Source: Octopus vulgaris
Taxonomy: Eukaryota
Length of the DNA: 64,000 bases
Assembly: GCA_951406725.2 (NCBI GenBank)
Contig: OX597841.1
Span: 6,200,001 to 6,264,000, forward strand
Direction of reading: 5' to 3'
The position numbers and the translations under genes are program-made. Below the pieces are notes generated by a model. It had not been told where the DNA came from. It saw nothing but the letters and a program-made list of their open reading frames with translations, and made no database searches. How positions within the stretch are numbered: position 1 is the stretch's first letter; each line of letters begins with the position of its first letter. This document shows, in pieces, positions 426-50,077 of this stretch.

Positions 426-838
426 GGATCTTTTCGGTTTGACCGGCAGATTTTTAAAATAATTTCTAGGTAACTAAACACTTTTAAACTTCGTATACTG
501 GTAGAATGTGTTTTTAAAACATCTTTTTCTCTTGGCTTTATTGAGAAAATTCTATAGTTTGTAAGATATTTGTTGTTTTTTTTCTTCAATTTCTGCAATT
601 TCAACCAATCAATGACGTCCATTGAAGTAAAAATCATTCTGTGCCGTATGAATATGTCCCTCGTTTAAGAAACGGATTGGGTTTATTTACATTTCTGAAG
701 AAAAAAAGATACCCTTCCCCCCACCCCTAAATCTAAAACAGATTGAAATGCAATAGATCGATACTAGGGTCATAATTATGGGTGACAATTTCATATGTCA
801 CCGCTAGAAAAAACTGCCGTTCAAACCGAAAAGGATCG
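426..838. mobile_element. MITE with GGATCTTTTCGGTTTGA(A/C)CGGCAG terminal inverted repeats
   Basis: Left end ggatcttttcggtttgaccggcagatttt; right end aaaaactgccgttcaaaccgaaaaggatc. Related arms at 4911-5150, 13051-13290 and 42755-43165. Confidence 0.65.
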
Positions 839-3137: not shown

Positions 3138-4440
3138 TCATATCTTACAGTTGAAAGGTTTCCCTCCAGAATGAATCTTTTTCTCATTAATTCACTACAA
3201 GACACAATAAATTTCTTACATCTTTCACAGTGGAATTCTATTTCCTCCTGTGTGACGACATTTGTGGTCAATTAGGCTACCACTCTGAGTAAAAGATTTT
3301 CCACATCTTTCACAGTGGAAGGGTCTTTCTCCAGTGTGGACGATATTTGTGGTGCAATTCAGGGTACTACTCTGAGGAAAAGATTTCCCACATAATTCAC
3401 AGTGGAATCGTTTCTCCCCAGATATTTGTGTCAATTCGTCTATGAACTCCAACTTGAAACTTATGAAGATAATTCTTTCCCATATATTTCCACAATTATT
3501 CTCTTTTATTCCAGAGTGTATTTTCTTATGGCGTGCACAAGAAGATTGATCAGAGAAGGATTTACCACACGTTTCACACTGGAAGGGTTTTTCCCCTGTA
3601 TGGACCCTTTTATGTCTGTCTAAATCACTATTAGAGACAAAACATTTCCCACAGATTTCACAAGGAAAACGTTTTTCCCCAGTGTGTACAATTTTGTGTG
3701 TTCTTAATGTACTCCTAGAACCAAATGATTCTCCACAGATTTCACAGTGGGAACGGTTTTTCCCCAGTGTGTGTTTTTATGTGTGTTATTAAAACTCTAT
3801 TTGTGACAAAAGATTTCTTACACAATTTACACTGGAATGGTTTCTCTCCTGTGTGACTACGTTTGTGAACCACAACATAAACATTCTTATTAAAAGACTT
3901 TCCACATATTTCACAATGGAAAGGCTTTTCCCCTGTGTGTATTGTTAAGACACTGCTAGAAACGAAAGATTTTCCACATATTTCACATCGGAATGGTTTC
4001 TCTCCAGTGTGACAACGTTTGTGAATTACAACAGAGGCAGAATCAGCAAAAGATTTCCCACAGATTTCACATTGGTATGGTTTCTCTCCTGTGTGACGAC
4101 GTTTGTGTCCAATGAGAGTAGAACTCTGAGCAAAAGATTTTCCACAAATTTCACAGTGGAAAGGTTTTTCCCCAGTGTGACTACGTTTGTGAGCTTCGAG
4201 ATCATAATTTCTGTGAAATGATTTCCCACAGATTTCACAACGGAACCGTTTCTTCTTCTTGTGTATTTCTTCATGTGAGAAGACTTCATCTTCTGAAGAG
4301 AATTTCTTCCTACAAATCTCACAGTGATATTCAGCAACACTTTTGTCTTCAGCTTCCTCATCTCTCTCTGTCTCTTCAACTGCATCTCCGTTCTCAAAAA
4401 CAGTCGTCTTACAAGTGTCCAAGAGATTAACGTTCTCCAT
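3138..4440 (-). pseudogene. C2H2 zinc-finger gene copy 1 (ZF1), frameshifted and degenerate in its 3' half
   Basis: ORF 3742-4440 has the family start MENVNLLDT and CxxC..HxxxH/TGEKP repeats. A +1 frameshift near 3750 (CCGTTCCCACTGT versus CCGTTCCACTGT) is followed by further broken fingers down to the family-type ending (SGGKPFNCKI*) at 3138. A finger is also shortened (VLTIHTGEK). Some indels could be sequencing errors. Confidence 0.85.
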
Positions 4441-4502
4441 ATGAATTCTTGGGGAATTCTTAAAAAGTAGACAAATGCTCGGTTTCTTATCGTTGATATC
4501 AA

Positions 4503-4586
4503 AGGCGGCGAGCTGGCAGAAAGGTTAGCACGCCGGGCGAAATGCTTAGTGGTATTTCGTCTGCCGCTACGTTCTGAGTTCAAATT
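4503..4586 (+). mobile_element. tRNA-derived SINE head (family B), truncated
   Basis: GGCGGCGAGCTGGCAGAA...GAGTTCAAAT with A/B-box-like motifs; longer copies at 39558-39792 and 37895-38341. Confidence 0.7.
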
Positions 4587-4910
4587 TCAATTTAAAAAGA
4601 AATAATCACAATTCGATGATTTCGATTCGAAAGACGAGCAATAGGCGGTGTCGTTGATAAGCTTTCCCCTAGTGTAAACGATACCGGTGACATATATTAA
4701 AAATCCCCAACATAATATAACACACGCCCAATTACATTAATTTACGTTATTGATTGTATCCAGCATCACACAACACAATTTCATGTAGACAGGAGTGAGC
4801 TTCGACGTGGTCTTTCGACCTTGTAGAAATAACAGCTAAGTCTCAAATAGATTACATCATTCTGACTTAACAAAACAAAGGAGACATTCTACAGTGCGGT
4901 CTTCGACAAA

Positions 4911-5150
4911 TAATTGTTGTTGACACACTACGGCAGAAATTGTATTCACCTTAATAGACGTCATTGATTGGTTGATATTGCTGAAATGCAAGAGATTAAA
5001 CAACAAATAGCTTACAAACTACAGAATTTTCTCAAAAGAGCCGAGAGAAAAAAATGTTTTAGGTAACACACTTCCGGTATACGAAGTTTTAAAGTATTTA
5101 GTTACAAAAAAATTATTTTAAAAATCTGCCGGTCAAAATGAAAAGATCCA
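4911..5150. mobile_element. One arm of the GATC-terminal foldback MITE
   Basis: Reverse-complement similar to 13051-13290 and to 426-640; ends in AAAAGATCCA. Confidence 0.65.
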
Positions 5151-5387
5151 TTATTTCTATATTTTATGCAAACAAAATGCACAAGAAAGCTACACGTTTG
5201 CATTATGTTATATATACAATAACAATAAAGGATGTTACCGTATACATTTCTACAAACCAAGGACGTTATATGGACCTCCTTGACTCAAGTCAGAGAAGGG
5301 GTGCGTATTATACACAAGGTTTAGGTTTTTCAGAGGTACAGACCCCTAAAAATCCCCTGGGCGGACTATACTCGAGGATTTACGGTA
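5151..5387 (+). mobile_element. Right part of a CCGTA-terminal (Tc2/pogo-like) MITE, hybrid of two variants
   Basis: Ends TATACTCGAGGATTTACGG-TA; 5292-5387 matches the reverse complement of the copy at 31443-31870. Confidence 0.8.
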
Positions 5388-5756
5388 CATTGCTATAATA
5401 TCCGAAGCGTACTCATTTCCAGTTGAAAACTATATTCTAACCAAACGTTTATTTTTGAGTGGGGATTTTTATTTTCGTCACCGCTTATATTCAAACAAGG
5501 GAAAAAGTATCATCGACACCGTCTACCGTGTTTCTAATTTTCTTAATTAAATCTAATTAAATCATTCGTAGTAATTATCTCATGTTGAGGTGAACGTTAC
5601 CGTTTGCGGATAAGACAGGGCTACGAACAAGTCTGGTTTTTAGGGGTTCGTTCGACCCAACTCGACAAAACCAAAGCAAACATTCCACTGTCCCAGATTA
5701 ATTATTTCATTTGATCAAAGCTTTAAATCGTTAATTGGTTTTCCCCTATTTTACAG

Positions 5757-5855
5757 AAAAGGAGGAAATGGCTTTTAATCAACAACAAATCAATCAACGA
5801 ACTTTCTTCAGCCTTCTCCACTCTTCATTTGGACTTTATACCAAACATTCTACTG
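5757..5855 (+). other. Conserved upstream mini-exon of ZF2
   Basis: TATTTTACAG acceptor and CTG|GTGAGT donor; homologous sequence precedes ZF3-ZF9. Confidence 0.65.
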
Positions 5856-5994
5856 GTGAGTAGGAAATACATCTACATTGCATCTGTTCCACACTTGTAA
5901 ACGGAGGACTGTGATATCTAAGACAAGAAATTGAACCATAACAGATTAACGCACGGACGTTTGTCTACTTTTTAAGAATTGCTCAAGAAATAAT

Positions 5995-8900
5995 ATGGAG
6001 ACCGTTGATCACTTGGACACAATTGTTTTGAACGATACAGATACAGATAGAGAGACAGACGGGGATGAGAAAACTGTTAATGGTGAAGTATTTACTAAAG
6101 AAAGATCGAGACAGGGAAATATCACCGAATATAAATGTGATGTTTGTAGGAAGACATTCTCTTCGGAGCAAGAAGTCTTTAAACACAAAGAAATACACAA
6201 TAAGGAAAAAGCCTATAATTGTGAAATATGTGGGAAGAATTTTGTCTCTGAAGATGTCTTAACGAAACACAAACGGATACACACTGGAGCAAGATTGTTC
6301 CATTGTGAGATCTGTGGAAAATCATTCATTAACAATTCTGATCTTGTTCTACACACTCGTAGTCACACTGGGGAGAAACCATTCAAGTGTGAAATTTGTG
6401 CAAAATCATTTGTCTCAAAAAGTAGGCTAAAAATTCACAAAAGAATCCACTCTGGAGGAAAATTATTTCATTGTGAAATTTGTCAGAAATATTTTCTATT
6501 TAACAGTGATTTAAACAGACATAAACGAATCCATAGTGGTGAGAAACCGTTTAGTTGTGAGATCTGCGGGAGATCATTTCTTAACAATTCTCATCTTGCA
6601 ACACACACACGTCGTCACACTGGGGAGAAACCATTCAAGTGTGAGATATGTGCAAAATCATTTATCTGTAAAAGTGAGCTAACATTTCACAAAAGACTCC
6701 ACACTGGAGAAAAATTACTCCATTGTGAAATATGTCCGAAATATTTTCGTTTTAACTGTGATTTAAACAGACATTTAAGAACACATTCAAGTGAAAAACC
6801 ATTCCACTGTGAAACGTGTGGGAAAAGCTTTACTGATAACAGTGGCTTAACGAAACACAAAGGAATCCACACTGGAGCAAGACTGTTTCATTGTGAGATC
6901 TGTGGAAAATCGTTTCAATGCAATTCTCATCTTGCAATACACACTCGTAGTCACACTGGGGAAAAACCATTCAAGTGTGAAATATGTGCGAAATCATTTG
7001 TCTGTAAAAGTGTACTACACAGACATAAAAGGATCCACTCTGATGAGAAACCCTTCAGTTGTGAGATCTGCGGGAAATCATATATTAACAATTCTGATCT
7101 TATTCTACACACTCGTAATCACACTGGGGAGAAACCATTCAAGTGTGAAATCTGTGCAAAATCATTTGTCTGTAAAAGTGAACTAAACAAACATAAAAGG
7201 ATCCACTCTGATGAGAAACCCTTCAGTTGTGAGATCTGTGGAAAATCGTTTCTTTGCAATTCTCATCTTGCAATACACACTCGTAGTCACACTGGGGAGA
7301 AACCATTCAAGTGTGAAATATGTGCAAAATCATTTGTCTGTAAAAGTGAATTAAACAAACATAAAAGGATCCACTCTGATGGGAAACACTTCAGTTGTGA
7401 GATCTGCGGGAAATCATTTCTTAGAAATTCTGAACTTTCAGTACACACACGTCGTCACACTGGGGAGAAACCATTCAAGTGTGAAATATGTGCAAAATCA
7501 TTTGTCTGTAAAAGTGAACTAATCAAACATAAAAAGATCCGCTCTGATGAGAAACCGTTTAGTTGTGAGATCTGCGGGAAATCATATATTAACAATACTG
7601 ATCTTGTCCTACACACACGTCGTCACACTGGGGAAAAACCATTCAAGTGTGAAATATGTGCAAAATCATTTGTCTGTAAAAGTGTACTAACAGCTCACAA
7701 AAGGATCCACTCTGATGAGAAACCCTTCAGTTGTGAGATCTGCGGGAAATCATTTCTTAGAAATTCTGATCTTGTTCGACACACACGTAGTCACACTGGG
7801 GAAAAACCATTCAAGTGTGAAATATGTGCAAAATCATTTGTCCGTAACAGTGTTTTAAACAGCCATAAAAGAATCCACTCTGATGAGAAACCCTTCAGTT
7901 GTGAGATCTGAGGGAAATCATTTCTTAGAAATTCTGATCTTGTTCTACACACATGTCGTCACACTGGGGAGAAACCATTCAAGTGTGAAATATGTGCAAA
8001 ATCATTTGTCTGTAAAAGTGTACTAACAGCTCACAAAAGGATCCACACTGATGAGAAACCCTTCAGTTGTGAGATCTGCGGGAAATCATTTCTTAGAAAT
8101 TCTGATCTTGTTCTACACACTCATAGTCACACTGGGGAAAAACCATTCAAGTGTGAAATATGTCAGAAATCATTTGTTTGTAAAAGTGTACTAACAGCTC
8201 ACAAAAGAATCCACTCTGATGAGAAACCGTTCAGTTGTGAGATTTGCGGGAAATCATTTCTTAACAATTCTGATCTTGTTCTACACACATGTCGTCACAC
8301 TGGGGAGAAACTATTCAAGTGTGAGATATGTTGTAAATCATTTATCTCTCATTATCGACTAAAAATTCACAAAAGACTCCACACTGGAGCAAGACTGTTT
8401 CATTGTGAGATCTGTGGAAAATATTTTCTCTCCAATTATGCTTTAAACAGGCATAAACAAACACATACAGGGGAGAAGCCTCACCATTGTGAGGTGTGTG
8501 GAAAAAGTTTCACTCAAGCCTCTCATCTTGCAGTTCACAAACGGATCCACACAGGAGAAAGACCTTTCCACTGCAGGGTTTGTGGCAAATCTTATAATAC
8601 AAATTTTACTCTTGTTCTTCACTTACGTAGTCACACAGGTGAAAGACCTTTCCATTGTGAAATCTGTGGTAAATCCTTCTCTAATAATTCTTCTCTTGTA
8701 GTTCACAAACGAACTCACACTGGAGATAAACCTTTCCATTGTGGAATATGTGGAAAGTCTTTTGTCAGGAGCAGCCACTTAAACACACACAAATTTATTC
8801 ACTCTAGAGGAAAAAGGTTTCACTGTGATATGTGCGGGAAATGGTTCACTCTTAATTCTACGCTTGTCATTCATAAACGAATTCACACCGGAGAAAAGCC

Positions 8901-9673
8901 TTATTGTTGTGATATATGTGGCTCATTGTTTGTCTCTCGCAGTAACTTAACGAAGCACGAACGAGTCCATACAGGAGACAAACCATTTGGCTGTGAAATA
9001 TGTGGAAAATCTTTTGTTTGTAGCAGTGACTTAACGAGGCATAGAAGGGTCCATACTGGGGAAAAACCTTTCCACTGTGAAATATGTGGAAAATCTTTTT
9101 CTCAGAATCCTCATCTTGTGATTCACAAACGTGGCCACACTGGAGAAAAGCCGTTCCAGTGAAATGTGTGGGACATCATTTGTGTCTAGCACTACCTTAA
9201 CACAACACAAAAGGATACACTCAAAAGAGAAAGCATTTGGCTGTGAAATATGTGGGGAATCTTTTGTTTGTAGCAGTAAATTAACGAGGCATAAAAGACT
9301 GCATTCTGAACAGAAACGCTTCCACTGTGAAATGTGTGGAAAATCTTTTACTCTGAATTCTCGTCTTGTAATTCACAAACGTCATCACACTGGAGAGAAG
9401 CCATTCCACTGTGAATTCTGTGGGACATCGTTTGTGTCTGAGAGTGGCTTAACAAAACACAAAAGGATACATAAAGTTGAAGGACGTTTTTTTTGTGAAG
9501 TCTGTGGGAAATGTTTTGCATATAACAGTAACTTAACAGAACACAAAAGGGTCCATGCAGGGGAACAACGTTTTCCTTGTGCAATCTGTGGGAAATGTTT
9601 TGCATATAACAGTAACTTAACAGAACACAAAAGGATTCACTCTGGAGGGAAACCTTTTAACAGTGGCATATGA
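5995..9673 (+). pseudogene. Chimeric C2H2 zinc-finger gene (ZF2), about 42 finger units, with premature stop and frameshift
   Basis: The 84-nt finger periodicity is continuous from ~6130 to ~9640. TGA at 7909-7911 replaces a Cys codon and the frame stays open after it. A 2-nt deletion near 9158 is seen against the paralog 34473-36893. The upstream acceptor AG is changed to GG (5955-5956). Confidence 0.88.
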
Positions 9674-12530
9674 TAAATCCTTAAAAACTTGCCAGGAATG
9701 GGACCAAAACATAAGAAAACAAGATCGGTTCGAGACGAAATCGTTAGTAAATGAATGAAGGACAAAATAATGAGCAGAATAAAGGTTTAGGGCCCCAGGA
9801 AAACAAGGATTAAATGAAAATAGTCGATAGAGAGCAAGAAAAGCCTTTGGGCTGCTGGACAAGACAAGAATGGGGAATGCGAAAGAGAAATGAAAACTTG
9901 TAAAGGACAATGAACACTGGGTCGGTAGAGCAAGGAGCTCAAAAAATTGTGACCAGTGCGGACGAGGGCAACGCGTAAAAAGAATGACCACTGCCTCAGG
10001 CAATCACCAATCACATTCTCAAGCAGTAATGTAATTAGATAGAGATCGTTATGGCCAGTGTCATAGGCCACCGGCTGTTAGTGTCTGAAGGGGTGGTGTA
10101 GTGCTGTGTATTTTCTGGATGCAGAACCCTGGGTAACCCCATAGAACAGCCATAACTATCTTCATCTAATATATATGTATGTGTGTAAATAGGTTTCTTT
10201 GTGTCTGCATCTGGCAAGTTATCTAACGCCTTTCCTCAGTCTGGTATAATAATATAGATCAGACTGGAGCCTGGTGCAGCCTCCTGGCTTCCCAGACCCT
10301 GGTCGAACTGTCCAACCCATGCTAGCATGGAAAACGGACATTAAATGATGATGATATTTATGTGTGTGTGTATAATTTCAGTAAATCATGAATAGAAAAG
10401 AGAAGTATACTCCAAGTCATAGAGCAATAGAGTAATTAGACAAAGGTAGTTATGGGCAGTGTATGGTTTTACACAGGGATTTGAGTGCATGAAGGGCTTA
10501 GCTTTACAGCATCTCTTCAGAAATTTATGGTTGGTCACCAGGGGCATAAGCTGTTACGATCTGACAACTGCTCTAAAACTAAGCCCAGAGGCCAGCCACA
10601 ACTATCTTTATCTAATATACATGTTTCTTTCTGTTTGCATCTCACAAGTTCTTTTCTCCGTCTGCTATAATAATATAGAACACTTGTCCAAGACATCTCA
10701 TAGTGGGACTGAAACCGATATCAACATGGTATGGTTTAGAAAAGTGTCTAAATTCTGTAATGGTGGTCATGTTGGAATATGAAACCAACAGCTGGAGAGA
10801 GATTCGTCCAAGTGAAACCTTTTCACTTTACCTCGTCTATCAATAATTTTTAATTAAAACCACAGGAAATTCAAAATCATTTTAAATAAAAATTTATTCT
10901 TTATATTCCTTAGACCAGCATAAAACCACAAATTATTCAATGATGAAATCAGAAACAAGCAAAGAACATTCACTGTAAAAAGCAGACTTTCCTTTTCTTT
11001 CTGTTAATAATTCAGATCCAGCAAAAACAGAAATCACTGAGAAATTTAGGCAAAACTTTATCATTGAAATTTGTGAGGAAATATTTTTTGGTCAATTTAA
11101 AATATTTTGTTAAAAATGTCCTGAATTTTGAAATTAAAATCCTTTCATTTTAATAATTTGTTGCATTATATTTTCTGGTCAGTTGATGTGATTCTTTCCA
11201 TTTTGATTCTTGAGTGAAAAACTTTCTTTTATTAAACAACATAAAACCACGTTTGCACTGCCAACTCCCTTATAATCAGGGGCTGTATTGTTCCCCTTCC
11301 AATCGAGGCTGCAGGTTTCTGCTTTCCAATCTTCATTTCTACTCCCTGATCTTTTATTCTTTGTTGCAGTCATTTTCCTGACAGCTATGAGGAAACAATG
11401 TCTGTAGGGGCAGGTGAAGGTGTACATTTGTACAGGTAAGCCTATATCAGTGGGGGAAGTTATTAAAGTACATACTATTAACAATAAAAATTTGCACAAT
11501 GACTTCTGAGTGCAACCTATGGCAACGGTTCACCTGCCCTCAGCATCTCTCTCTCCCTCCAACTCCGTTTCTGGCTTAAGTTTCCGTCTGCCGGCCTGAG
11601 CGATGTGGAACACATTGCATTTTATGAAATGGAAGTCAAGATTTGAATGGACTTACAAATACGAAAGACAAAAAGAACAACGAAGCAGAGATGCTTTTAT
11701 AGAAAGCGAGTGGAATATCTGTTGGATGTCTTGCAAACTACTTGCACATGCAAGAGCTACCAGTTAAAAGCTCCGTATACCGGAAGCTAGCAAGTGTATG
11801 GGGTCATCAGGAGAGAATGCGCGCCGTTTTGGGGCCTACCTCTCGACGGCCCCCCCTCACCGATATGAGGCCCCGCTTGCTAGATCAGCTGGTTATGAAG
11901 TTAAACTCAACATCCTTCTAGCCATCGCTCATCGTCTCTTTTTAACCAAATCCAGTGGCTAGCCTTCTCCATTTCGGGGCCTACTTCTCGACGGCATCAA
12001 TGCGCACTGCCCCCCACCTCACTGATATGAGGCCCCGCTTGCTAGATCAGCTGGTTATGAAGTTAAGCTCAATATCCTTCTAGCCATCACTCATCGTCTC
12101 TTTTTAACCAAATCCAGTGGCTAGCCTTCTCCACCGTAGATTAGAAAAGCATTTATGAGAGACAAACGCGAAAAATAAAGAAAACGATTCAAGCTCGTGT
12201 GGAATGATTTGAACGTATAAAACTTGTAAACAGAAACAAATTGGACAGCTTCAAAAGCTAGAATCACTTACAGAAAAAGAAGTTTATATATATGTAAATA
12301 TATAAACAAAGTTACGTAGCATATTGTAGAAGGGGTGAAGAAATGTTACTGGCTTTAGGAAAAGAAAGTACAAGTGGATCAGTTATTTAGGATTTTATTC
12401 AACGTCCCCTTCTCACATTCATTCAGTGTAGCCGATCTTCAGTTTTTCTAGGTCATCTAAAAGAACTCGGAAGGTGGGGCCTGAAACCAGGCCTTCCGCC
12501 ACCCACTTAAAGTCGGGAGCTGCCCTCATA

Positions 12531-13050
12531 TACCGTAAATCCTCGAGTATAATCCGCATTTTTCCCCCAAAATTTAAAGGTCAGAATCCCTAGTGCGTAC
12601 TATATACGAGGTTCAAAAATGACAATTATTTTCTAAGCAATGACCAAGTCTCTATTTGCTGTCCGGCAATGTTTATTCAGACGCATTTTGTGATGTCGGG
12701 CGCTAAAATACCTTCAGCTAAGCCTGAAAGCAATGAAGTCATAAAAGAATCATCCATAACTTGCAATAAGCAACATTTATTAAACGTTATTACTGTTATT
12801 TCTTTATTTTATGTTATATATACAATAATAATAAAGGATGTTATATAGATCTCCTTGACTCAAGTTAGAGAAGGGGTGCGTATTATACACCAGGTTTAGG
12901 TTTTTCAGAGGTACAGCCCCCTAAAAATCCTCTGCGTATTATACCCAAGGGCGCGAAAATACCTTAAGCTAAGCCTGAAAGCAATGAAGTCATAAAAGAA
13001 TCATCCATAACTTGCAATAAGCAACATTTATTGAACGTTATTATTGTTAT
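12531..13050 (+). mobile_element. Left part of the same Tc2/pogo-like MITE plus an internal partial repeat
   Basis: Starts TA-CCGTAAATCCTCGAGTATA; right TIR missing; 12953-13050 repeats ~12700-12800. Confidence 0.8.
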
Positions 13051-13290
13051 TGGATCTTTTTGCTGAACGGCAGACTTTTAAAATAATTTCTTTGTAATTA
13101 AACACTTTTAAACTTCGTATACTGGTATAAATGTGTTTATATAACTTCTTTTACACTTGGCTTTCTTGAGAAAATTCTGTAGTTTGTAAGCTATTTGTTG
13201 TTTAATTTCTTGCATTTCAGCAATTTCAACCAATCAATGACGTCTATTGAGGTGAATACAATATCTCCGGATCTTTGTCAACAACAATTA
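13051..13290. mobile_element. Opposite arm of the GATC-terminal foldback MITE
   Basis: Starts TGGATCTTTT; inverted relative to 4911-5150. Confidence 0.65.
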
Positions 13291-13504
13291 CTTGCTGTGT
13301 CTTCTTCTATGTTTAGCAGTTGGAAGAAGGCAGTCTGGGTCAAATGCTTCTTTTGGCTGTCTCCACATGTATACTAGGCCAGTGGGGTCGATCTAATTTA
13401 CTGGCTCCCTCCCACCAAATTTCAGGCCTTGTGCCTAGAGTAGAATAGAATATTCATAACTTCTGATGATTTGCTGTGCATTGCAATATTTAAAAGAGAT
13501 TTAA

Positions 13505-13985
13505 AATAATAATGAAATTATTGCATACAGTGCTCAGGTGCACCACAACTTGTCAGAAAGTGCATATAAAGTATATGCAGTAATGTAGAAATGTCTGGAA
13601 AGTGAACAGTGTATGAGTCAGATACATGCTTGTGTGTGTATGGAGGGGAGAAAGATCAGGTGTAGTGTTGGCGAATCTCAGGAAGCATTGAAGTTTTGAA
13701 GGATGCAGTGCTCCGACAACTAACAACCGATGCCGGCAGTTTGTTCCATGCTTCAGTAACTCTCAGCGTGAAAAAATGTTTCCTGAAGTCATGGGAGCTG
13801 TGCTGTTTTCTGACTTTGTAAACATGTCCACGGGTGTTAGACGGGTGGAGTTTGAAAAGGTGCTCAGAGTTATTGTTTGTACGATGGTTGATAATTTTAT
13901 GGGTGTCTGCCAAGTCAGCTGCCAGACGTCGGAGTTTCAATGTGTCCATGCCCAGGGAAGTAAAGCGTTCAGGATATTTCTTCAT
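13505..13985 (-). mobile_element. CR1-type LINE 3' fragment
   Basis: Encodes LKLRRLAADL..NTRGH..FRKHFFTLRV..AWNKLP, typical of the CR1 ORF2 C-terminus; homologous to 28280-28678. Confidence 0.8.
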
Positions 13986-14189
13986 CTTTATAGTAGACTG
14001 AGTTTGATGGACTGATTTCTTTGAAAACAGTGATAAGAAGACACATCAAAGTGACGAACTCCACCAAATAACTGACCCAATCCAGTGACCTGCTGTCTTA
14101 TGCTCCCAACACTTAACTTTAGATATTTCCTCCTAATATGGATGTTACACATAATTAAACAAAAGAGAAATAATTTGAAATTACAGATT

Positions 14190-14894
14190 CAGGCGCAGGA
14201 GTGGCTGTGTGGTAAGTAGCTTGCTAACCAACCACATGTTTCCAGGTTCAGTCCCACAGCATGGCACCTTGGGCAAGTGTCTTCTGCTATGGCCCCGGGC
14301 CGACCAATGCCCTGAGAGTGGATTTGGTAGACGGAAACTGAAAGAAGCCCGTCGTATATATATATATAGGTGCAGGAGTGGCTGTGTGGTAAGTAGCTTG
14401 CTTACCAACCACATGGTCCCGGGTTCAGTCCCACTGCGTGGCATCTTGGGCAAGTGTCTTCTGCTATAGCCCCGGGCCGACCAATGCCTTGTGAGTGGAT
14501 TTGGTAGACGGAAACTGAAAGAAGCCCGTCGTATATATAGGTGCAGGAGTGGCTGTGTGGTAAGTAGCTTGCTTACCAACTACATGGTCCTGGGTTCAGT
14601 CCCACTGCGTGGCATCTTGGGCAAGTGTCTTCTACTATAGCTCTGGGCCGACCAACGCCTTGTGAGTGGATTTGGTAGACGGAAACTGAAAGAAGCCCAT
14701 CGTATATATGTATATATATATATATATATGTAGTAGCTGTGTGGTAAGTAGCTTGCTAACCAACCACATGGTTCTGGGTTCAGTCCCACTGCGTGGCATC
14801 TTGGGCAAGTGTCTTCTGCTATAGCCCTGGGCCGACCAAAGCCTTGTGAGTGGATTTGGTAGACAGAAAATGAAAGAAGCCTGTTGTATATATG

Positions 14895-14925
<31 letters not shown>

Positions 14926-15126
14926 CTGTGTTTGTCCCCCTAGCATTGCTTGACAACCGATGCTGGTATGCTTATGTCCCCGTTACTTAGCGGTTCGGCA
15001 AAAGGGACCGATAGAATAAGTACTGGGCTTACAAAAGAATAAGTCCCGGGGTCAATTTGCTCGACTAAAGGTGGTGCTCCAGCATGGCCGCAGTCAAATG
15101 ACTGAAACAAGTAAAAGAGTAAAGAG
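14190..15126 (+). mobile_element. tRNA-derived SINE (family A) with four tandem heads and one tail
   Basis: The head (G)GAGTGGCTGTGTGGTAAG...GGTTCAGTCCC...GAAAGAAGCCC occurs 4 times (the fourth lacking its first bases), then a (TA/TG)n spacer and the tail ending GTAAAAGAGTAAAAGAG. Confidence 0.85.
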
Positions 15127-15575
15127 ATTCAAATGTGTCTCCTCGTGTCTTACAAGAGATATTTTTCTTCTGGAACTTCTGCAATGAATATAAATAATAA
15201 CATTTGTCACAAATATTTGGAGCTTTTGAACAGAACAAGTCAAATATATTGTAAATGCCCAGCTTTTACATCAACTGAACCTGCTGTCCGTTGACAACCT
15301 TTTCCGCCTCCACCCATTGCCATGCCATTTTTGTGGTGGTCACCTCCCATGCCATGCTTCTCTCAATGAGACCATTGAGAAACTCGGATCTGTATGTGTT
15401 ACGTAAGACTAGAGATGGGAGTGACTTTGTGCCGTTGGCCAGCTGGTGACGTCTTCTCGAGGCTAAAAACAAAAGTAGCACCGTAGGATCGACCCCAGTG
15501 CGTAACTGGTACTTATTTAATCGACCCCGAAAGGATGAAAGGCAAAGTTGCCAGTCTGAAGTATTGTTGTTATTC

Positions 15576-16564: not shown

Positions 16565-16815
16565 AAATTAATAGTTATCGCCATACTTATATGGCAGTCT
16601 TATAAATATAAGACTAAAGCTATCGCTGATTAGCTCCAAGAGGCCACCGTCTCAAGCTAGCTATTTGACACACAATCTGTTCGAAGGTTTATAATGGACG
16701 CAGATTGTGTGTCAAATAGCTAGCTTGAGGCGATGGCCTCTTGGAGCTAATCAGCGACAGCTTTAGTCTTATATTTATAAGACTGCCATATAAGTATGGC
16801 GATAACTATTAATTT
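16565..16815. repeat. Near-perfect foldback (arms ~115 bp, 21-nt spacer)
   Basis: 16565-16679 is the reverse complement of 16701-16815 with about 3 mismatches. Confidence 0.9.
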
Positions 16816-24637: not shown

Positions 24638-24730
24638 ACAAACATATCTTTCAGTTGCAGTAGACTATGCATTGCATTGTATGCAATTATGCATCCAAGT
24701 TGCAGCAATTTCATCAAGGGTCTATGTTGT

Positions 24731-25277
24731 TTAATAACTTCCCCCACTGATATAGGCTTACCTGTACAAATGTACACCTCCACCTGCCCCTACAGACATT
24801 GTTTCCTCATACCTGTCAGGAAAATGACTGCAACAAAGAATAAAAGATCAGGGAGTAGAAATGAAGATTGGAAAGCAGAAACCTGCAGCCTCGATTGGAA
24901 GGGGAACAATACAGCCCCTGATTATAAGGGAGTTGGCAGTGCAAACGTGGTTTTATGTTGTTTAATAAAAGAAAGTTTTTCACTAAAGAATCAAAATGGA
25001 AAGAATCACATCAACTGACCAGAAAATATAATGCAACAAATTATTAAAATGAAAGGATTTTAATTTCCAAATTCAGAACATTTTTAACAAAATATTTTAA
25101 ATTGACCAAAAAATATTTCCTCACAAATTTCAATGATAAAGTTTTGCCTAAATTTCTCAGTGATTTCTGTTTTTGCTGGATCTGAATTATTAACAGAAAG
25201 AAAAGGAAAGTCTGCTTTTTACATTGAATGTTCTTTGCTTGTTTCTGATTTCATCATTGAATAATTTGTGGTTTTTA
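24731..25277. repeat. Cluster-specific downstream repeat (~550 bp)
   Basis: Near-identical to 32763-33310 and 42391-42752, and inverted to 10925-11465; always 3' of a ZF gene in the same relative orientation. Confidence 0.85.
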
Positions 25278-25290
25278 TGATACTCTAACG

Positions 25291-25696
25291 AATCATCATC
25301 ATCATCGTTTAACGTCCGCTTTCCATGCTAGCATGGGTTGGACGGTTCGACCAGGAGGCTGCACCAGGTTCCAATCTTGATCTGGTAGAGTTTCTACAGC
25401 TGGATGCCCTTCCTAACGCCAACCACTCCGTGAGTGTAGTGGATGCTTTTTACGTGCCACCGACACAGACATTATATATATATATATGCCAGACTCCCCT
25501 GGCACCTGTGCCGGTGGCACGTAAAAAGCACCCACTACACTCGCGGAGTGGTTGGCGTTAGGAAGGGCATCCAGCTGTAGAAACACTGCCAGATCAGACT
25601 GGAGCCTGGTGCAGCCCCTGGCTTCCCAGATCCCGGTCGAACCGTCCAACCCATGCTAGCATGGAAAACGGACGTTAAACGATGATGATGATGATG
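25291..25696. mobile_element. Inverted pair of RTE 3'-end fragments
   Basis: Minus copy 25291-25468 and plus copy 25500-25696, each with a (GAT)n tail. Other short copies at ~2598-2745, 2975-3095, 10255-10355, 16186-16258, 19488-19684 and 33792-33892. Confidence 0.75.
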
Positions 25697-28279: not shown

Positions 28280-28678
28280 ATCCATATTCTGAGCGCCTTG
28301 TTTCCCTGGGCATGGATTCACTGAAGCTCCGGCGTCTGGCAACGGACTTGGTAAACACCCACAAAGTTATCAACCACCTCACCAACAACAACACTGAACA
28401 CCTTTTTGATCTCCATGTGTCCAACACGCGTGGACATGCCTACAAGGTCAGAAAACAACACAGCTCCCATGACTTTCGGAAACATTTTTTCACGCTCAGA
28501 GTTGCTGAAGCATGGAACAAACTGCCTGCGTCAGTTGTTGACTGCCATGACACTGCATCTTTTAAGGCCCTCATGCTTTCCGAAATACGCCGAAACTACA
28601 CCTGATTATACATACACTTTAGATGAGTTGTAGTGCACCTGAGCACTGTACACAATTATTATTATTATTATTATTATC
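28280..28678 (+). mobile_element. CR1-type LINE 3' fragment with (ATT)n tail
   Basis: CR1 ORF2 C-terminal motifs followed by a 3' UTR ending in ATTATTATT. Confidence 0.8.
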
Positions 28679-28835
28679 CACAAGTTCACAAATAGGAATG
28701 CCCAGAATATTTTGGAGAAAAAACTTCTCCTAAACAAGAGATCAACAAGATTCAAAGATAAGAAATGATGAGAAATGAGAATTATTTCCATCATATTTCC
28801 CCCAAGTTAAAATGTTCTCCACAGAAAAGGATTTA

Positions 28836-30833
28836 TCATATTCCACAGTTAAGAGATTTCCTTCCTCTGTGAATCCTTTTGTGTTGTGTTAAGTTACTGC
28901 TAGTGGCAAAAGATTTTCCACAGATTTCACAGCGGAAAGGTTTTTCCCCTGTATGGATTCTTCTATGCTTCGTTAAGCTACTGCTATAATTAAAAGATTT
29001 CCCACATATCTGACAGCCAAATGGTTTCTCCCCTATATGTCTTCTTTGGTGTTTCGTTAAGATACTGTTAGACACAAACGATGTCCCGCAGATTTCACAG
29101 TGGAAAAGTTTTTCTCTTGTGTGGACACGTTTGTGAATTACAAGATGATAACTCTGAAAAAAAGATTTTCCACATACTTCGCAGAGGAAAGGCTTTTCTC
29201 CAGTATGGCCACGTTTGTGACATATGAGATGGGAATTCTGAGAAAAAGATTTTCCGCATATTTCACAGTGGAAAGGTTTCTCCCCAGTATGCAGTCGTTC
29301 ATGCCTCGTTAAGTCACTGCCACAAACGAAAGTTTTCCCACAGATTTGACAGCGAAATGGTTTCACTCCTGAATGGATTCGTTTGTGTTTTGTTAAGTTG
29401 CCATTGTAGGCAAACAATGTGCCGCATATTTCACAACGATATGGTTTTTCCCCAGTGTGACTCTGCTGATGTCTGACAAGAGTAGAATTTTGAGTGAAAC
29501 ACTTCCCGCAGATTTCACAGCGAAGCAGTTTTCGTCCAGAGTCATTCAATTTGCACGTATTTAAGAGGCTGTTACCAACGAAGGGTTCCCCAAATATTTC
29601 ATGGAAAGGCTTCTCTTCAGCGTGACTTCGTTTGTGAACAACAAGAAGAGAATTATCGGAGAAAGATTTCTCACACACTTCACAACGGTAGGGATTTTCT
29701 CCAGTGTCACTACGTTGGTGTTCAACGAGGCATGGTTTATCAGCAAATGATTTTCCGCCTATTTCAAAGCGATAAATATTTTCTCCAGTGTGACTAAGTT
29801 TGTGACGAACCAAATTAAAATTAACAGAGAATGATTTACCACAGATATCACAATGATGTGGTTTCTCCCCGGTATGTGTTCGCCTATGTTTCTTTAAAGC
29901 ACTATTACAGAAAAAATAATTTCCACATATCTCACAATCATAGGATTTTTCCCCCGTGTGGATCCGTTTGTGTTTCGTTAAGCCACTGTTATCAGTAAAG
30001 CTTTTCCCACACGTTTCACAGTGGAATGGTTTTTCACTTGAATGTGTTCTTAAATGTCTGTTTAAATCACAGTTAAAACGAAAATATTTCGGACATATTT
30101 CACAATGGAGTAATTTTTCTCCAGTGTGGAGTCTTTTGTGAAATGTTAGCTCACTTTTACAGATAAATGATTTTGCACATATTTCACACTTGAATGGTTT
30201 CTCCCCAGTGTGACGACGTGTGTGTAGAACAAGATCAGAATTGTTAAGAAATGATCTCCCGCAGATCTCACAACTAAACGGTTTCTCACCACTATGGATT
30301 CGTTTATGTCTGTTTAAATCACTGTTAGATAGAAAATATTTCTGACAAATTTCACAATGAAATAATTTTCCTCCAGAGTGGATTCTTTTGTGAATTTTTA
30401 GTACACTTTTACAGACAAATGATTTCGCACAAATTTCACACTTGAATGGTTTTTCCCCAGTGTGACTACGAGTGTGTATTGCAAGATGAGAATTGCATTG
30501 AAACGATTTTCCACAGATCTCACAATGAAACAGTCTTGCTCCAGTGTGTATCCGTTTGTGTTTTGTTAAGACATCTTCAGAGACAAAATATTTCCCACAT
30601 ATTTCACAATTATAGGATTTTTCCTTATTGTGTATTTCTTTGTGTTTAAAGACTTCTTGCTCCGAAGAGAATGTCTTCCTACAAACATCACATTTATATT
30701 CGGTGATATTTCCCTGTCTCGATCTTTCTTTAGTAAATACTTCACCATTAACAGTTTTCTCATCCCCGTCTGTCTCTCTATCTGTATCTGTATCGTTCAA
30801 AACAATTGTGTCCAAGTGATCAACGTTCTCCAT
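28836..30833 (-). CDS. C2H2 zinc-finger protein (ZF4), 665 aa, about 22 finger units (2 degenerate)
   Basis: Intact ORF; two internal units have lost Cys/His ligands (YRFEIGGKSF, FHEIFGEPF). Confidence 0.93.
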   Translation of the reverse strand: MENVDHLDTIVLNDTDTDRETDGDEKTVNGEVFTKERSRQGNITEYKCDVCRKTFSSEQEVFKHKEIHNKEKSYNCEICGKYFVSEDVLTKHKRIHTGARLFHCEICGKSFQCNSHLAIHTRSHTGEKPFKCEICAKSFVCKSVLKIHKRIHSGGKLFHCEICQKYFLSNSDLNRHKRIHSGEKPFSCEICGRSFLNNSDLVLHTRRHTGEKPFKCEICAKSFICKSELTFHKRLHTGEKLLHCEICPKYFRFNCDLNRHLRTHSSEKPFHCETCGKSFTDNSGLTKHKRIHTGEKSYDCEICGNYFFCNSALKKHRRTHTGEKPHHCDICGKSFSVNFNLVRHKLSHTGENIYRFEIGGKSFADKPCLVEHQRSDTGENPYRCEVCEKSFSDNSLLVVHKRSHAEEKPFHEIFGEPFVGNSLLNTCKLNDSGRKLLRCEICGKCFTQNSTLVRHQQSHTGEKPYRCEICGTLFAYNGNLTKHKRIHSGVKPFRCQICGKTFVCGSDLTRHERLHTGEKPFHCEICGKSFSQNSHLICHKRGHTGEKPFLCEVCGKSFFQSYHLVIHKRVHTREKLFHCEICGTSFVSNSILTKHQRRHIGEKPFGCQICGKSFNYSSSLTKHRRIHTGEKPFRCEICGKSFATSSNLTQHKRIHRGRKSLNCGI

Positions 30834-31071: not shown

Positions 31072-31442
31072 CTGTAAAATAGAGGAAAACCAATTAACGA
31101 TTTAAAGCTTTGATCAAATGAAATAATTAATCTGGGACAGTGGAATGTTTGCTTTGGTTTTATCGAGTTGGGTCGAACGAACCCCTAAAAACCAGACTTG
31201 TTCGTAGCCCTGTCTTATCCGCAAACGGTAACGTTCACCTCAACATGAGATAATGACTACGAATGATTTAATTAGATTTAATTAAGAAAATTAGAAACAC
31301 GGTAGACGGTGTCGATGATACTTTTTCCCTTGTTTGAATATAAGCGGTGACGAAAATAAAAATCCCCACTCAAAAATAAACGTTTGGTTAGAATATAGTT
31401 TTCAACTGGAAATGAGTACGCTTCGGATATTATAGCAATGTA

Positions 31443-31870
31443 CCGTAAATCCTCGAGTATAGTCCGCCCAGGGGATTTTTAGGGGTCTGTACCTCTGAAA
31501 AACCTAAACCTTGTGTATAATACGCACCCCTTCTCTAACTTGAGTCAAGGAGATCTATATAACATATTTTATTATTATTGTATATATAACATAAAATAAA
31601 GAAATAACAGTAATAATGTTTAATAAATGTTGCTTACTGCAAGTTATGGATGATTCTTTTATGACTTCATTGCTTTCAGGCTTAGCTGAAGGTATTTTAG
31701 CGCCCGACATCACAAAATGCGTCTGAATAAACATTGCCGGACAGCAAATAGAGACTTGGACATTGCTTAGAAAATAATTGTCATTTTTGAACCTCGTATA
31801 TAGTACGCACTAGGGATTTTGACCTTTAAATTTTGGGGGAAAAAAGCAGATTATACTCGAGGATTTACGG
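31443..31870. mobile_element. Complete Tc2/pogo-like MITE
   Basis: 19-bp perfect TIR CCGTAAATCCTCGAGTATA with TA on both flanks. Confidence 0.85.
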
Positions 31871-34472
31871 TATATGAGGGCAGCTCCCGACTTTAAGTGG
31901 GTGGCGGAAGGCCTGGTTTCAGGCCCCACCTTCCGAGTTCTTTTAGATGACCTAGAAAAACTGAAGATCGGCTGCACTGAATGAATGTGAGAAGGGGACA
32001 TTGAATAAAATCCTAAATAACTGATCCACTTGTACTTTCTTTTCCTAAAGCCAGTAACATTTCTTCACCCCTTCTACAATACGCTACGTAACTTTGTTTA
32101 TATATTTACATATATATAAACTTCTTTTTCTGTAAGTGATTCTAGCTTTTGAAGCTGTCCAATTTGTTTCTGTTTACAAGTTTTATACGTTCAAATCATT
32201 CCACACGAGCTGGAATCGTTTTCTTTATTTTTCGCGTTTGTCTCTCATAAATGCTTTTCTAATCTACAGTGGAGAAGGCTAGCCACTGGATTTGGTTAAA
32301 AAGAGACGATGAGCGATGGCTAGAAGGATATTGAGCTTAACTTCATAACCAGCTGATCTAGCAAGCGGGGCCTCATATCAGTGAGGGGGGCCGTCGAGAG
32401 GTAGGCCCCGAAATGGCTCGCATTCTCTCCTGATGACCCCATACACTTGCTAGCTTCCGGTATACGGAGCTTTTAACTGGTAGCTCTTGCCTGTGCAAGT
32501 AGTTTGCAAGACATCCAACAGATATTCCACAGCATCTCTGCTTCGTTGTTCTTTTTGTCTTTCGTATTTGAAAGTTCATTCTAATCTTGACTTCCATTTC
32601 ATAAAATGCAATGTGTTCCCCATCGCTCAGGCCGGCAGAGGGAAACTTTAGCCAGAAACGGAGTTGGAGGGAGTGAGAGTGAGAGATGCCCAGGGCAGGT
32701 GAACCGTTGCCATAGGTTGCACTCAGAAGCCGTTGTGCAAATTTTTATTGTTGATAGTATTTACTTTAATAACTTCCCCCACTGATATAGGCTTACCTGT
32801 ACAAATGTACACCTTCACCTGCCCCTACAGACATTGTTTCCTCATACCTGTCAGGAAAATGACTGCAACAAAGAATAAAAGATCAGGGAGTAGAAATGAA
32901 GATTGGAAAGCAGAAACCTGCAGCCTCGATTGGAAGGGGAACAATACAGCCCCTGATTATAAGGGAGTTGGCAGTGCAAACGTGGTTTTATGTTGTTTAA
33001 TAAAAGAAAGTTTTTCACTCAAGAATAAAAATGGAAAGAATTACATCAACTGACCAGAAAATATAATGCAACAAATTATTAAAATGAAAGGATTTTAATT
33101 TCCAAATTCAGAACATTTTTAACAAAATATTTTAAATTGACCAAAAAATATTTCCTCACAAATTTCAATGATAAAGTTTTGCCTAAATTTCTCAGTGATT
33201 TCTGTTTTTGCTGGATCTGAATTATTAACAGAAAGAAAAGGAAAGTCTGCTTTTTACATTGAATGTTCTTTGCTTGTTTCTGATTTCATCATTGAATAAT
33301 TTGTGGTTTTATGCTGGTCTAAGGAATATAAAGAATAAATTTTTATTTAAAATGATTTTGAATTTCCTGTGGTTTTAATTAAAAATTTGTGATAGACGAG
33401 GTAAAGTGAAAAGGTTTCACTTGGACGAATCTCTCTCCAGCTGTTGGTTTCATATTCCAACATGACCACCATTACAGAATTTAGACACTTTTCTAAACCA
33501 TACCGTGTTGATATCGGTTTCAGTCCGACTATGAGATGTCTTGGACAAGTGTTCTATATTATTATAGCAGACGGAGAAAAGAACTTGTGAGATGCAAACA
33601 GAAAGAAACATGTATATTAAATAAAGATAGTTGTGGCTGGCCTCGCTGTAAAGCTAAGCCCTTCATGCACTCAAATCCCTGTGTAAAACCATACACTGCC
33701 CATAACTACCTTTGTCTAATTACTCTATGACTTGGAGTATACTTCTCTTTTCTATTCATGATTTACTGAAATTATACACACACACATAAATATCATCATC
33801 ATTTAATGTCCGTTTTCCATGCTAGCATGGGTTGGACAGTTCGACCAGGGTCTGGGAAGCCAGGAGGCTGCACCAGGCTCCAGTCTGATCTATATTATTA
33901 TACCAGACTGAGGAAAGGCGTTAGATAACTTGCCAGATGCAGACACAAAGAAACCTATTTACACACATACATATATATTAGATGAAGATAGTTATGGCTG
34001 TTCTATGGGGTTACCCAGGGTTCTGCATCCAGAAAATACACAGCACTACACCACCCCTTCAGACACTAACAGCCGGTGGCCTATCACACTGGCCATAACG
34101 ATCTCTATCTAATTACATTACTGCTTGAGAATGTGATTGGTGATTGCCTGAGGCAGTGGTCATTCTTTTTACGCGTTGCCCTCGTCCGCACTGGTCACAA
34201 TTTTTGAGCTCCTTGCTCTACCGACCCAGTGTTCATTGTCCTTTACAAGTTTTCATTTCTCTTTCGCATTCCCCATTCTTGTCTTGTCCAGCAGCCCAAA
34301 GGCTTTTCTTGCTCTCTATCGACTATTTTCATTTAATCGTTGTTTTCCTGGGGCCCTAAACCTTTATTCTGCTCATTATTTTGTCCTTCATTCGTTTACT
34401 AACGTTTTCGTCTCAAACCGATCTCGTTTTCTTATGTTTTGGTCCCATTCCTGGCAAGTTTTTAAGGATTTA

Positions 34473-42230: not shown

Positions 42231-42754
42231 ATATATATATTCGTGTGCCTTTGATTGTCCTCACCACCACACCATCATTTAACAGACTAATAGAATAAAT
42301 AGGAGGCTCACACAGAATAAGTCCTGGGGTCAATTACTTCAACTAGGGTAAAAGAAACCCTTTAAGGTGGTGCTCCAGCATGGCCACACTCAAATGACTG
42401 CAACAAAGAATAAAAGATCAGGGAGTAGAAATGAAGATTGGAAAGCAGAAACCTGCAGCCTCGATTGGAAGGGGAACAATACAGCCCCTGATTATAAGGG
42501 AGTTGGCAGTGCAAACGTGGTTTTATGTTGTTTAATAAAAGAAATGTTTTCACTCAAGAATCAAAATGGAAAGAATCACATCAACTGACCAGAAAATATA
42601 ATGCAACAAATTATTAAAATGAAAGGATTTTAATTTCAAAATTCAGAACATTTTTAACAAAATATTTTAAATTGACCAAAAAATATTTCCTCACAAATTT
42701 CAATGATAAAGTTTTGCCTAAATTTCTCAGTGATTTCTGTTTTTGCTGCATCTA

Positions 42755-43177
42755 AACTTCGGACACTGGTAGAATGTGTCATATAAAACATCTTTTACTC
42801 TTATCATTTTTGAGAAAAGCTTATATTTAGGAAGTTATTTCATGTTAAAGTTGTCCTATTTCGGCAATTTCAACCAATCAATGACGTGTTTTCAGCTGAA
42901 TAAAATTACTGCTATTGTTTGTCAACAACTTTTGGTGGTGTATTTTTTGTTTGTCACTGTTATTTATGACATCATTTCTGTGTTTGTACTGGTTTTAAGG
43001 TTGGGGTTTTAGGGTTAGGGTTTTAGTGTTAGGGGGTTAGGGTTTTAGGGTTAGGGCTGTCATAAATAACTGACAAACGAAGCATACACTGCTGGAAGTT
43101 CTTCTTGACAAACAACAGCAGTAATTTTATTCTGCTGAATAAACGTCATTGATTGGTTGAAATTAGGGTTAGGGTTA
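42755..43177. mobile_element. Foldback MITE remnant with central (TTAGGG)-like repeats
   Basis: Inverted arms (caaccaatcaatgacg..aataaaattactgct) around a ggttagggttttaggg tract. Confidence 0.6.

Positions 43178-50047: not shown

Positions 50048-50077
<30 letters not shown>

Follow-up and report, generated by a model that had tools for sequence, protein, structure and literature searches.

In maize, the segment between Ac transposons can form a circle, and permutations occur (PMC3744419, PMC3470690), while duplications through a circular intermediate are described for human cSDPs (PMC7450558), by Takahashi and Innan (PMC7188851) and for tilapia vasa (PMC3245284). As far as these accounts go, the resolved human cases show no homology at their joints (PMC7450558), and the review PMC3420103 states the choice of reintegration sites for circular duplicates as open. 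Here we describe a gene copy, X, at ~5,151-13,050 of a 64,000-nt window of the Octopus vulgaris assembly GCA_951406725.2 (OX597841.1, 6,200,001-6,264,000, forward strand). X shares with the cSDPs that it is a non-tandem duplicate whose block order is rotated relative to the donor. Its joints, however, are of another kind: those reported in the cSDP accounts (PMC7450558, PMC7188851, PMC3245284) show, in place of homology, no more than microhomology of 1-2 bp, short indels or an inverted repeat of 8 bp, whereas both the closure (finger repeats) and the opening (a MITE) of X lie within homology, and X carries a second, nested permutation. X thus does not show the lack of homology that PMC7450558 lists for the joints of closure and integration.

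At cattle KIT (Durkin et al. 2012, via PMC3420103), two successive circles are described, one presumed to have been integrated by homologous recombination; according to that review, the step by homology there uses unique sequence and brings hundreds of kb back to the ancestral locus, whereas X involves 7.6 kb and a short dispersed repeat. The yeast HXT6/7 circle (bioRxiv 10.1101/2022.06.22.497135) resembles X in arising from two tandem paralogs and carrying a chimeric gene, but in that report the circle re-enters the locus it came from, giving HXT6-HXT6/7-HXT7, while X sits inverted and non-tandem, 17-24 kb from its donor. With Ac/Ds, as presented in PMC3744419 and PMC3470690, X has in common transposon ends that face inward, a direct repeat next to each joint and a single new junction inside, and it differs in its same-type degenerate ends and the large loss at the internal junction. 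A literature search in which subscription journals were sparsely covered returned no paper combining a zinc-finger cluster, a circular intermediate, a chimeric gene and gene conversion, and, by titles and abstract openings, none on integration of a circle at a MITE. X is a real, homology-joined variant of the known circular-intermediate duplication, represented by one case, and its mechanistic parts are all already known.

The donor is a tandem pair, G1-spacer-MITE-G2 (30-37 kb), in which both C2H2 genes lie on the minus strand: G2 at 28836-30833 (20 fingers detected) and G1 at 34473-36893 (27 fingers detected). X is a circular permutation of this pair, with 7,575 bp between the switches; it starts and ends within one 24-mer, and its block order is rotated relative to the intact donor (BLAST blocks of 94-96%). 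Positions 5292-12890 correspond to the donor from G1 finger 2 via the spacer and the donor MITE (MITE A) to G2 finger 9, with its closure lying in the finger repeats and its new opening inside the MITE. On the plus strand, X consists of an A-type MITE right end with TIR and TA (5316-5387, identical to 31441-31512), a G2-derived upstream block with a small exon and an intron (5388-5994; splice signals read by eye), a C2H2 zinc-finger exon (5995-9673), the G1-G2 spacer together with the upstream block that in the donor is found to the left of the MITE (9674-12530), and TA followed by the A-type left part of the MITE with its left TIR (12531-12866). The G2-side length is 1,576 bp in copy and donor alike, and the 927-bp excess of the whole unit (7,575 bp in X vs 6,648 bp in the donor) is accounted for to ~1 bp by eight additional fingers and the listed indels. 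Against the donor we counted 37 substitutions in 2,715 bp as background (1.36%), with 31 in 2,037 aligned bp over 9674-11849 and 3/225 differences over 12306-12530; 5388-5635 differs from G2 at 1/248 positions and from G1, G3 and G4 by 16-20%.

The exon at 5995-9673, with 41 fingers detected, is chimeric: fingers 1-9 are those of G2 and the distal fingers those of G1, and the G2-to-G1 junction zone (6869-7020, plus strand), where the permuted unit is closed, joins finger repeats out of register. In the upstream part, X diverges by 0.4% from G2 and 16.3% from G1 (G1-G3, 10.0%), and in the distal fingers by 0.2% from G1 and 29.7% from G2 (G1-G3, 12.1%). These divergences rule out an ancestral X with a chimeric donor, and judged by them the chimera is the duplicate X, not the donor. 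The exon is interrupted by a stop at 7909-7911 and a frameshift from a 2-bp deletion near 9159. Ectopic exchange is common in this cluster, as seen in finger 3 of X, which is identical to G3 finger 3 (84/84). When residues 1-110 encoded by the chimera served as a protein query, 118 of 151 candidates passed, all generic C2H2 proteins at 28-52% identity. A circle formed from tandem paralogs would be expected to bear a chimeric gene like this one.

The intact donor MITE A lies on the minus strand at 31441-31872 with TA on both sides; the element proper (31443-31870, CCGTA...TACGG) is 428 bp long, has ~25-bp TIRs and contains no ORF of at least 90 aa. It is missing from the same site in all three paralogs (G1, G3, G4), and the empty paralogous site in G1 and G3 is a single TA. 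Length, TIRs, TA duplication, empty paralogous sites and the short, non-coding make-up all resemble a Tc1/mariner-type MITE, to which MITE A probably belongs; it is presumably Tc2/pogo-like. The window contains no autonomous partner and, by blastn, motif scan and nhmmer, no MITE or B copies beyond the pieces described here, and the exact TIR pattern had no match in bacterial and archaeal genome contigs.

The switches reported in the preliminary description are confirmed. The left MITE piece of X is of a non-A type (B) up to 5291 and of type A thereafter, without a single difference from the 31443-31870 copy over 5292-5572, and the right piece is A-like to 12890 and departs from 12891, with differences at 12891, 12917 and 12931. 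Both switches flank one 24-mer, identical at 5292-5315 (left joint, B to A), 12867-12890 (right joint, A to B; both plus strand) and 31513-31536, the figure of 24 bp being simply the spacing of neighbouring variant sites. The reciprocal hybrids thus switch once in the same interval, as expected of a single crossover. The left piece carries two extra blocks, of 39 bp (counted by eye) and 31 bp, and substitutions at 5223, 5272, 5275 and 5291 as well as, read by eye, at 5159; the right piece has an additional copy of the motif GCGTATTATACCC at 12934-12946. Eight further right-piece sites within 12533-12890 also differ from the 31-kb copy. Four of these (12766, 12786, 12836 and 12837) agree with the B-type pieces, so that the change is private to the 31-kb copy and there is no second switch, and the other four cannot be polarised; GG at 12836-12837 as a second switch was ruled out on this ground.

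How much weight the coincidence bears was assessed by simulation. Two independent switch points fell within a gap of 0-24 bp in 5.5%, 9% and 19% of simulations over 424, 240 and 95 bp, respectively, and a single switch point did so in 39%, so that coinciding switches alone are modest evidence, with a likelihood ratio of ~2-7. Compared with the 1.36% background, the non-A parts have 5/77 (P=0.004), 3/44 (P=0.022) and 4/103 (P=0.053) substitutions, and 12/224 together (P=7e-5), with the sites entered by hand from the alignment.

The non-A material comprises three parts on the plus strand: 5150-5291 (MITE positions ~263-334, with the two extra blocks), 12891-12953 (with the extra subterminal motif, stopping 22 bp before the right end of the MITE) and a second, probably B-type copy of MITE positions 166-268 at 12949-13051, which ends in ATT and has 4 private substitutions in 101 bp. 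The last two meet at GGGCG (12949-12953), where the sequence returns from MITE position ~406 to ~166; this motif is present exactly twice in MITE A, at 31705 and 31469. The three parts cover MITE positions 166-406 once, with gap or overlap solely at the joints. The B-type parts of the left and right sides share no MITE position, and an intact B copy is absent from the window. The crossover between two MITEs proposed in the preliminary description stands in part. Since the outer pieces are MITE-homologous, homology placed the joints, and the insert is indeed permuted, but an intact resident MITE is not supported: 5150-5315 joined to 12891-13051 lacks both TIRs and runs through positions 263-406 and then 166-268. 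The rebuilt 'empty site' furthermore sits between two inward-facing termini of a second element family, F, which the earlier reading had missed, and a permuted 'empty site' between F ends implies two nested permutations. The crossover may have happened at another place, and this locus may never have contained the 'empty site'. An empty site for the outer joints was not found within the window, and three of three alignments of the DNA right of the second F arm with the paralogous upstream block were at shuffle level, without continuation.

The two F arms, F1 (4907-5149, minus strand, truncated at its far end) and F2 (13052-13321, plus strand), both turn a GGATC terminus toward the insert. F1 matches 13048-13294 in inverted orientation at 84.8%, and its terminus is that of the intact family-F copy at 426-837 (plus strand; ~30-bp imperfect TIRs; flanks GTT/GTT, or TT/TT if the end is 838). 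Both arms match the left arm of that copy and are of the same end type, and neither of their TIRs fits the 24-base TIR pattern within three mismatches; the exact F TIR pattern had no match in bacterial and archaeal genome contigs. The fold-back at 42753-43164 shows its inner arm end at 43058; F1 falls ~40 bp and F2 ~10 bp short of reaching it. As this fold-back is only 74-76% like F1 and F2, it serves poorly as a model of full-length F. The two F termini join the MITE at one and the same position: the tail at 12949-13051 ends at most 6 bp from the position at which the left piece starts, and both adjoin F termini. ATT is present at both outer joints (5150-5152, plus strand, at the F1/MITE joint) and is a candidate 3-bp target-site duplication, only the 3-mer being an exact direct repeat among lengths 1-8; for comparison, the length of such duplications can be read from a single reference F copy, GTT/GTT or TT/TT. 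Alternatively, the ATT may belong to an overlap of 5-6 bp. Between F1 and F2 the difference is 13%, and the divergence per branch is no different between the F arms (31/472) and B (12/224; Fisher P=0.62), so that F can have inserted into B. Among nine flanking ORFs, Pfam gave no transposase, with families for two of nine (RVT_1 and a weak endonuclease match), and Rfam had no match in 4000-15500. A reading of F1 and F2 as the long TIRs of a single pack-type transposon ending at 4907 and 13294 was rejected because the exact terminus that they share faces inward and their outer ends are ragged.

Two nested rearrangements would account for this arrangement, and as a whole we hold them to be a real possibility that stops a little short of probable. 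Recombination of the tandem paralogs G1 and G2 out of register would have produced a circle, either directly or as a pop-out from a transient triplication; as the donor is intact on the same sequence, a simple excision must stem from another chromatid. The MITE of this circle would then have recombined once with an older, longer relative, B, over ~95 bp at 94% identity, giving the B/A and A/B hybrids. B would beforehand have received a fold-back F at ATT, and a second circle, closed at the GGGCG microhomology inside B and opened near the F axis, would have inserted beside the region upstream of the 3742-4440 gene, so that an F arm remained on either side. Either order is possible, and an 'empty site' would have existed at this locus solely if the second-circle step preceded the MITE recombination. 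The outcome would be a chimeric finger gene, with its stop and frameshift, split from the upstream block left of the MITE. In favour of the nested model are the permuted order, the lengths that agree between copy and donor, the divergences that make X the chimera, the switch sites, the three B-type tiles, the shared F/MITE position, the arms that stop near the inner arm end of the fold-back, the divergences of F and B and the ectopic exchange in this cluster. Against it stand the five events that it requires, a homology of ~95 bp that is short for a crossover, the thin right-hand evidence (P=0.022 for the switch, P=0.053 for the tail), the low likeness of the fold-back, the DNA right of F2 without continuation of the paralogous block, and the 3-bp ATT duplication, which requires one more ATT in B than in A; neither a circle nor a deletion allele nor an empty site is seen.

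Less probable, and on balance somewhat unlikely, is the repair of a break in B by synthesis with one template switch and no free circle, in which an end would invade MITE A, copy through G2 finger 9, jump back to G1 where the fingers are homologous (or pass along a transient G1-hybrid-G2 triplication), copy on as far as the MITE and re-anneal to the other end of B. Such repair would give an identical sequence with the same pair of joints while the donor stays untouched, and it tolerates short homology; conversion tracts between paralogs of the cluster indicate frequent template use, and breakpoint features as treated by Chicote et al. (PMC7450558) fail to separate end-joining from template switching. 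It would however need ~7.6 kb of synthesis and a backward jump of ~6.6 kb, or an intermediate that is not observed, and it leaves the outer F and GGGCG joints unexplained.

For the outer joints, transposition with reversed ends is decidedly unlikely: two old F copies would have faced each other around B, their ends would have been cut, the DNA between them would have circularised with GGGCG as the junction, and the ends would have reinserted into this circle at ATT, permuting it in place, which is compatible with the inner crossover. One such event would cover three junctions, its inward-facing termini, direct repeat at both joints and single new internal junction fit the geometry of maize Ac, and the 13% between F1 and F2 is as expected of separate old copies. 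Yet Ac uses a 5' and a 3' end, whereas both F ends are of one type relative to 426-837; both F TIRs are degenerate; 165 bp and 22 bp of the MITE ends are missing from the junction, whereas Ac circle junctions show footprints of a few bases; and the stopping of both arms near the fold-back axis would be chance. Same-type ends need not be fatal to this reading if palindromic F elements exist.

That the two sides are unrelated, the left a B fragment and the right a product of local mutation and slippage duplication of A whose switch agrees by chance, is highly improbable. The right-hand evidence is thin, with three substitutions and one motif next to a junction (3/44) and four substitutions in the tail (4/103), a chance agreement of 5-19% and no B copy to compare; but the end of the tail within 6 bp of the left start and both F abutments would then also be chance, and there are 12/224 differences overall. 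An assembly artefact or uncollapsed allele is hardly credible even in a region rich in near-identical repeats, as copy and donor differ by 1.4%, by indels and in finger number, the chimera is clean, the sequence contains no Ns and its joints are precise to the base.

The locus suggests dispersed transposon copies as possible landing sites for DNA circles that carry genes, although the landing site here is itself a rearranged fragment; the general claim that dispersed MITEs may act as integration sites has a single case behind it. Two joints in homology and a shuffled finger array away from its upstream block give a signature for genome-wide searches: permuted duplicates bounded by paired hybrid repeats. 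The route would offer zinc-finger clusters a non-tandem path to expand and reshuffle, at present seen as one event that left a copy with a stop and a frameshift. The broader idea that these clusters grow by serial circles, closed by finger repeats around a new chimeric finger array, landed by short dispersed MITEs for which ~95 bp at 94% identity suffices, and re-broken and moved again by fold-backs, is doubtful; if it is true, two nested circle steps are preserved here at base resolution, and the same pattern should be met elsewhere in the genome. Beyond F2, the stretch 13469-13977, which matches 28284-28710 at 80%, was considered as a leftover 3' flank of a replaced resident gene, which found no support; it gave no Pfam match and by eye resembles a retroelement fragment.

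Generic C2H2 proteins were the sole matches of the protein search, and the window is filled by a C2H2 zinc-finger gene cluster of animal type, possibly like those of octopus, that contains introns, SINE-like repeats and the reverse transcriptase of a LINE (LINE-type ORF at 53715-55376, - strand; Pfam RVT_1, E=1.2e-31). Besides the chimeric zinc-finger gene X (5995-9673, + strand), the cluster contains the zinc-finger genes G2 (28836-30833), G1 (34473-36893), G3 (43320-45047) and G4 (56206-57876) and the cluster gene G0 (3742-4440), all on the - strand. The DNA around X matches the donor, a tandem pair at 30-37 kb, in the pairs 5265-7008 vs 31563-29821, 7456-10510 vs 36692-33645, 10588-11971 vs 33644-32270 and 11969-12950 vs 32416-31451. 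The donor runs G1, spacer, MITE and G2, and the X locus runs MITE-right, G2 front, G1 rear, spacer and MITE-left, a circular permutation of that order.

Fingers 4-8 of X are 78-84/84 identical to fingers 4-8 of G2, and fingers 28-41 are 82-84/84 identical to fingers 13-27 of G1. Upstream, X diverges from G2 by 0.4% and from G1 by 16.3%, while distally it diverges from G1 by 0.2% and from G2 by 29.7%; G1 groups with G3 both upstream (10.0%) and distally (12.1%). On this sequence comparison, X and not the donor is the chimera. The G2 likeness of X stays in register until 6868, 6869-7015 is in the register of finger 2 from either G2 or G1 (6 of 7 sites favouring G2), and from 7020 on G1-specific sites prevail, which places the conversion-blurred G2/G1 junction within 6869-7020. 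The unit measures 7,575 bp in X and 6,648 bp in the donor. Its G2 side has the same length, 1,576 bp, in each, and 8 extra fingers together with the observed indels account for the excess. X is interrupted by a stop at 7909-7911 and has lost 2 bp near 9159. In 6892-8400 a two-finger 168-bp unit has multiplied, so that X counts 18 fingers against 10 in G1. Its spacer holds a local tandem duplication at 11850-12133 (162-bp offset), which the donor does not have, and a young repeat at 10905-11474 with copies at 24723-25293 (97.7%) and 42392-42756 (98.6%) and a fragment at 61249-61329.

The donor MITE, variant A, is 428 bp long (31443-31870). It has CCGTA...TACGG ends, is flanked on both sides by TA and is absent from the equivalent site in all three paralogs G1, G3 and G4, which fits a Tc1/mariner-type MITE, possibly a Tc2/pogo-like one. 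The outer, non-A parts of the MITE pieces flanking X are assigned to a putative longer variant, B. The left piece exceeds A by two blocks of 39 and 31 bp; short direct repeats border each of them, and A therefore appears to have arisen from B by deletion. No further B copy was found within the window.

As the preliminary description stated, the left piece is B-type to 5291 and A-type thereafter: besides the two blocks, it differs from A by five substitutions (5159, 5223, 5272, 5275 and 5291), and no difference occurs from 5292 to 5572. The non-A character of the right piece from 12891 also held, with differences at 12891, 12917 and 12931 and one extra subterminal motif; ahead of 12891 eight sites differ from the 31-kb copy, four of them private to that copy when the B-type pieces are compared. 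Pooled, the non-A parts differ at 12 of 224 bp, where the background is 1.36% (P=7e-5; separately, P=0.004 for the left part, 0.022 for the right and 0.053 for the tail). Both switches fall in the same 24 bp (5292-5315 and 12867-12890), a length set simply by the spacing of adjacent variant sites. In simulations, independent switches gave a gap of 0-24 bp in 5.5-19% of cases and a single switch point gave one in 39%, so the coincidence on its own is modest evidence; the DNA between the switches is stronger.

Past 12891, the right piece reaches a GGGCG 22 bp before the MITE end, jumps to the other GGGCG at MITE position 166 and continues to position 268, and the left piece begins at position 263. 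The B-type parts thus cover positions 166-406 in an order that is again circularly permuted, and they include no TIR. On both sides they abut a terminus of a second DNA-element family, F, overlooked previously. The F arms (4907-5149 and 13052-13321) are inverted and 85% alike, and their GGATC start equals the end of the intact F copy at 426-837. ATT is the sole exact direct repeat at both F/MITE joints, and together with the meeting of the B parts at F termini it points to one F insertion site in B; had B not carried the extra ATT, the joints could instead share 5-6 bp containing one mismatch. GTT/GTT borders the intact copy, whose right end may alternatively lie one base further out. Relative to the inner arm end of a related fold-back at 42753-43164, which is only 74-76% similar to the F arms, the right arm ends about 10 bp short and the left about 40 bp short. 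Judged per branch, the ages of the F arms and of B are similar (P=0.62). A search for an empty site of the outer joints found none. The 42753-43164 fold-back has a TTAGGG-like spacer between its arms and past its right arm. A short hairpin, seen by eye at 405-425 immediately left of the intact F copy, is absent at the joints of the two F arms.

The feature is thus real, a single case, and more complex than first described through an extra nested rearrangement. The intact resident MITE that had been expected from joining 5151-5315 to 12891-13050 did not emerge, as the joined parts have no TIR, are permuted and are bounded by F termini; as the nested steps could have come in either order, such an empty site need not ever have been present at this locus. 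The permutation, the chimera, the paired switches, the GGGCG junction and the F termini present at the locus would be explained jointly by a model that we rate slightly below an even chance. A circle would have closed within the finger repeats, and its MITE would have undergone one crossover with B in a stretch of about 95 bp that is 94% identical; fold-back F would have been present in B beforehand, and a second circle would have formed by closure at GGGCG and been opened close to the axis of F. The circle is a putative intermediate. Repair synthesis with a template switch, which leaves the donor intact, could build the inner structure with no circle at all, and we consider this possible, if doubtful. 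The outer joints might derive from reversed-ends transposition as in maize Ac, for which circularization of the inter-end segment and recovery of permutations are described (PMC3744419, PMC3470690); however, the F ends here are of the same type and both degenerate, and the internal junction is short of 165 and 22 bp, making this origin improbable. That the outer MITE parts are unrelated to each other is very unlikely, and an artefact hardly credible.

The locus works like several known circle cases: rotated duplicates in human and tilapia, for which no homology is reported at the joints described (PMC7450558, PMC7188851, PMC3245284), cattle, where a homologous return step is presumed (PMC3420103), and yeast, where circles from tandem paralogs with a chimeric gene are known (bioRxiv 10.1101/2022.06.22.497135). 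It differs from cSDPs, whose joints are marked by 'no homology', and from a simple crossover, which would have left an intact resident element. Literature searches, covering titles and abstract openings in an open-access library, brought up no description of a circle integrating at a MITE. Octopod C2H2 clusters have been attributed to tandem duplication (PMC9795677), which bears on this locus if the window is of octopod origin.

The cluster also bears marks of exchange among paralogs. The 5' exon region (X 5845-6430 and its G1-G4 counterparts) is homogenised, with G2-G4 at 1.0% and the others at 3-6%, against 10-24% in the flanks; finger 3 of X equals that of G3 (84/84), and X 6869-7015 almost equals G2 fingers 2b-4a, pointing to frequent gene conversion. 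X adjoins a G0-type upstream block at a distance similar to that between G4 and the gene at 59457-60755, and this pair (57900-59460) is arranged head to head like X and G0. The G0-type neighbour could be there by chance, or X could have displaced a resident gene, a remnant of which was sought and not found. Two further repeats lie in the window: a 397-bp inverted repeat of 99.5% identity (50072-50468 and 51010-51406) around about 540 bp, beside a (TA)n run, resembles a fold-back element of very recent origin, and a 250-bp palindrome at 16565-16815 (92%) is probably another MITE.
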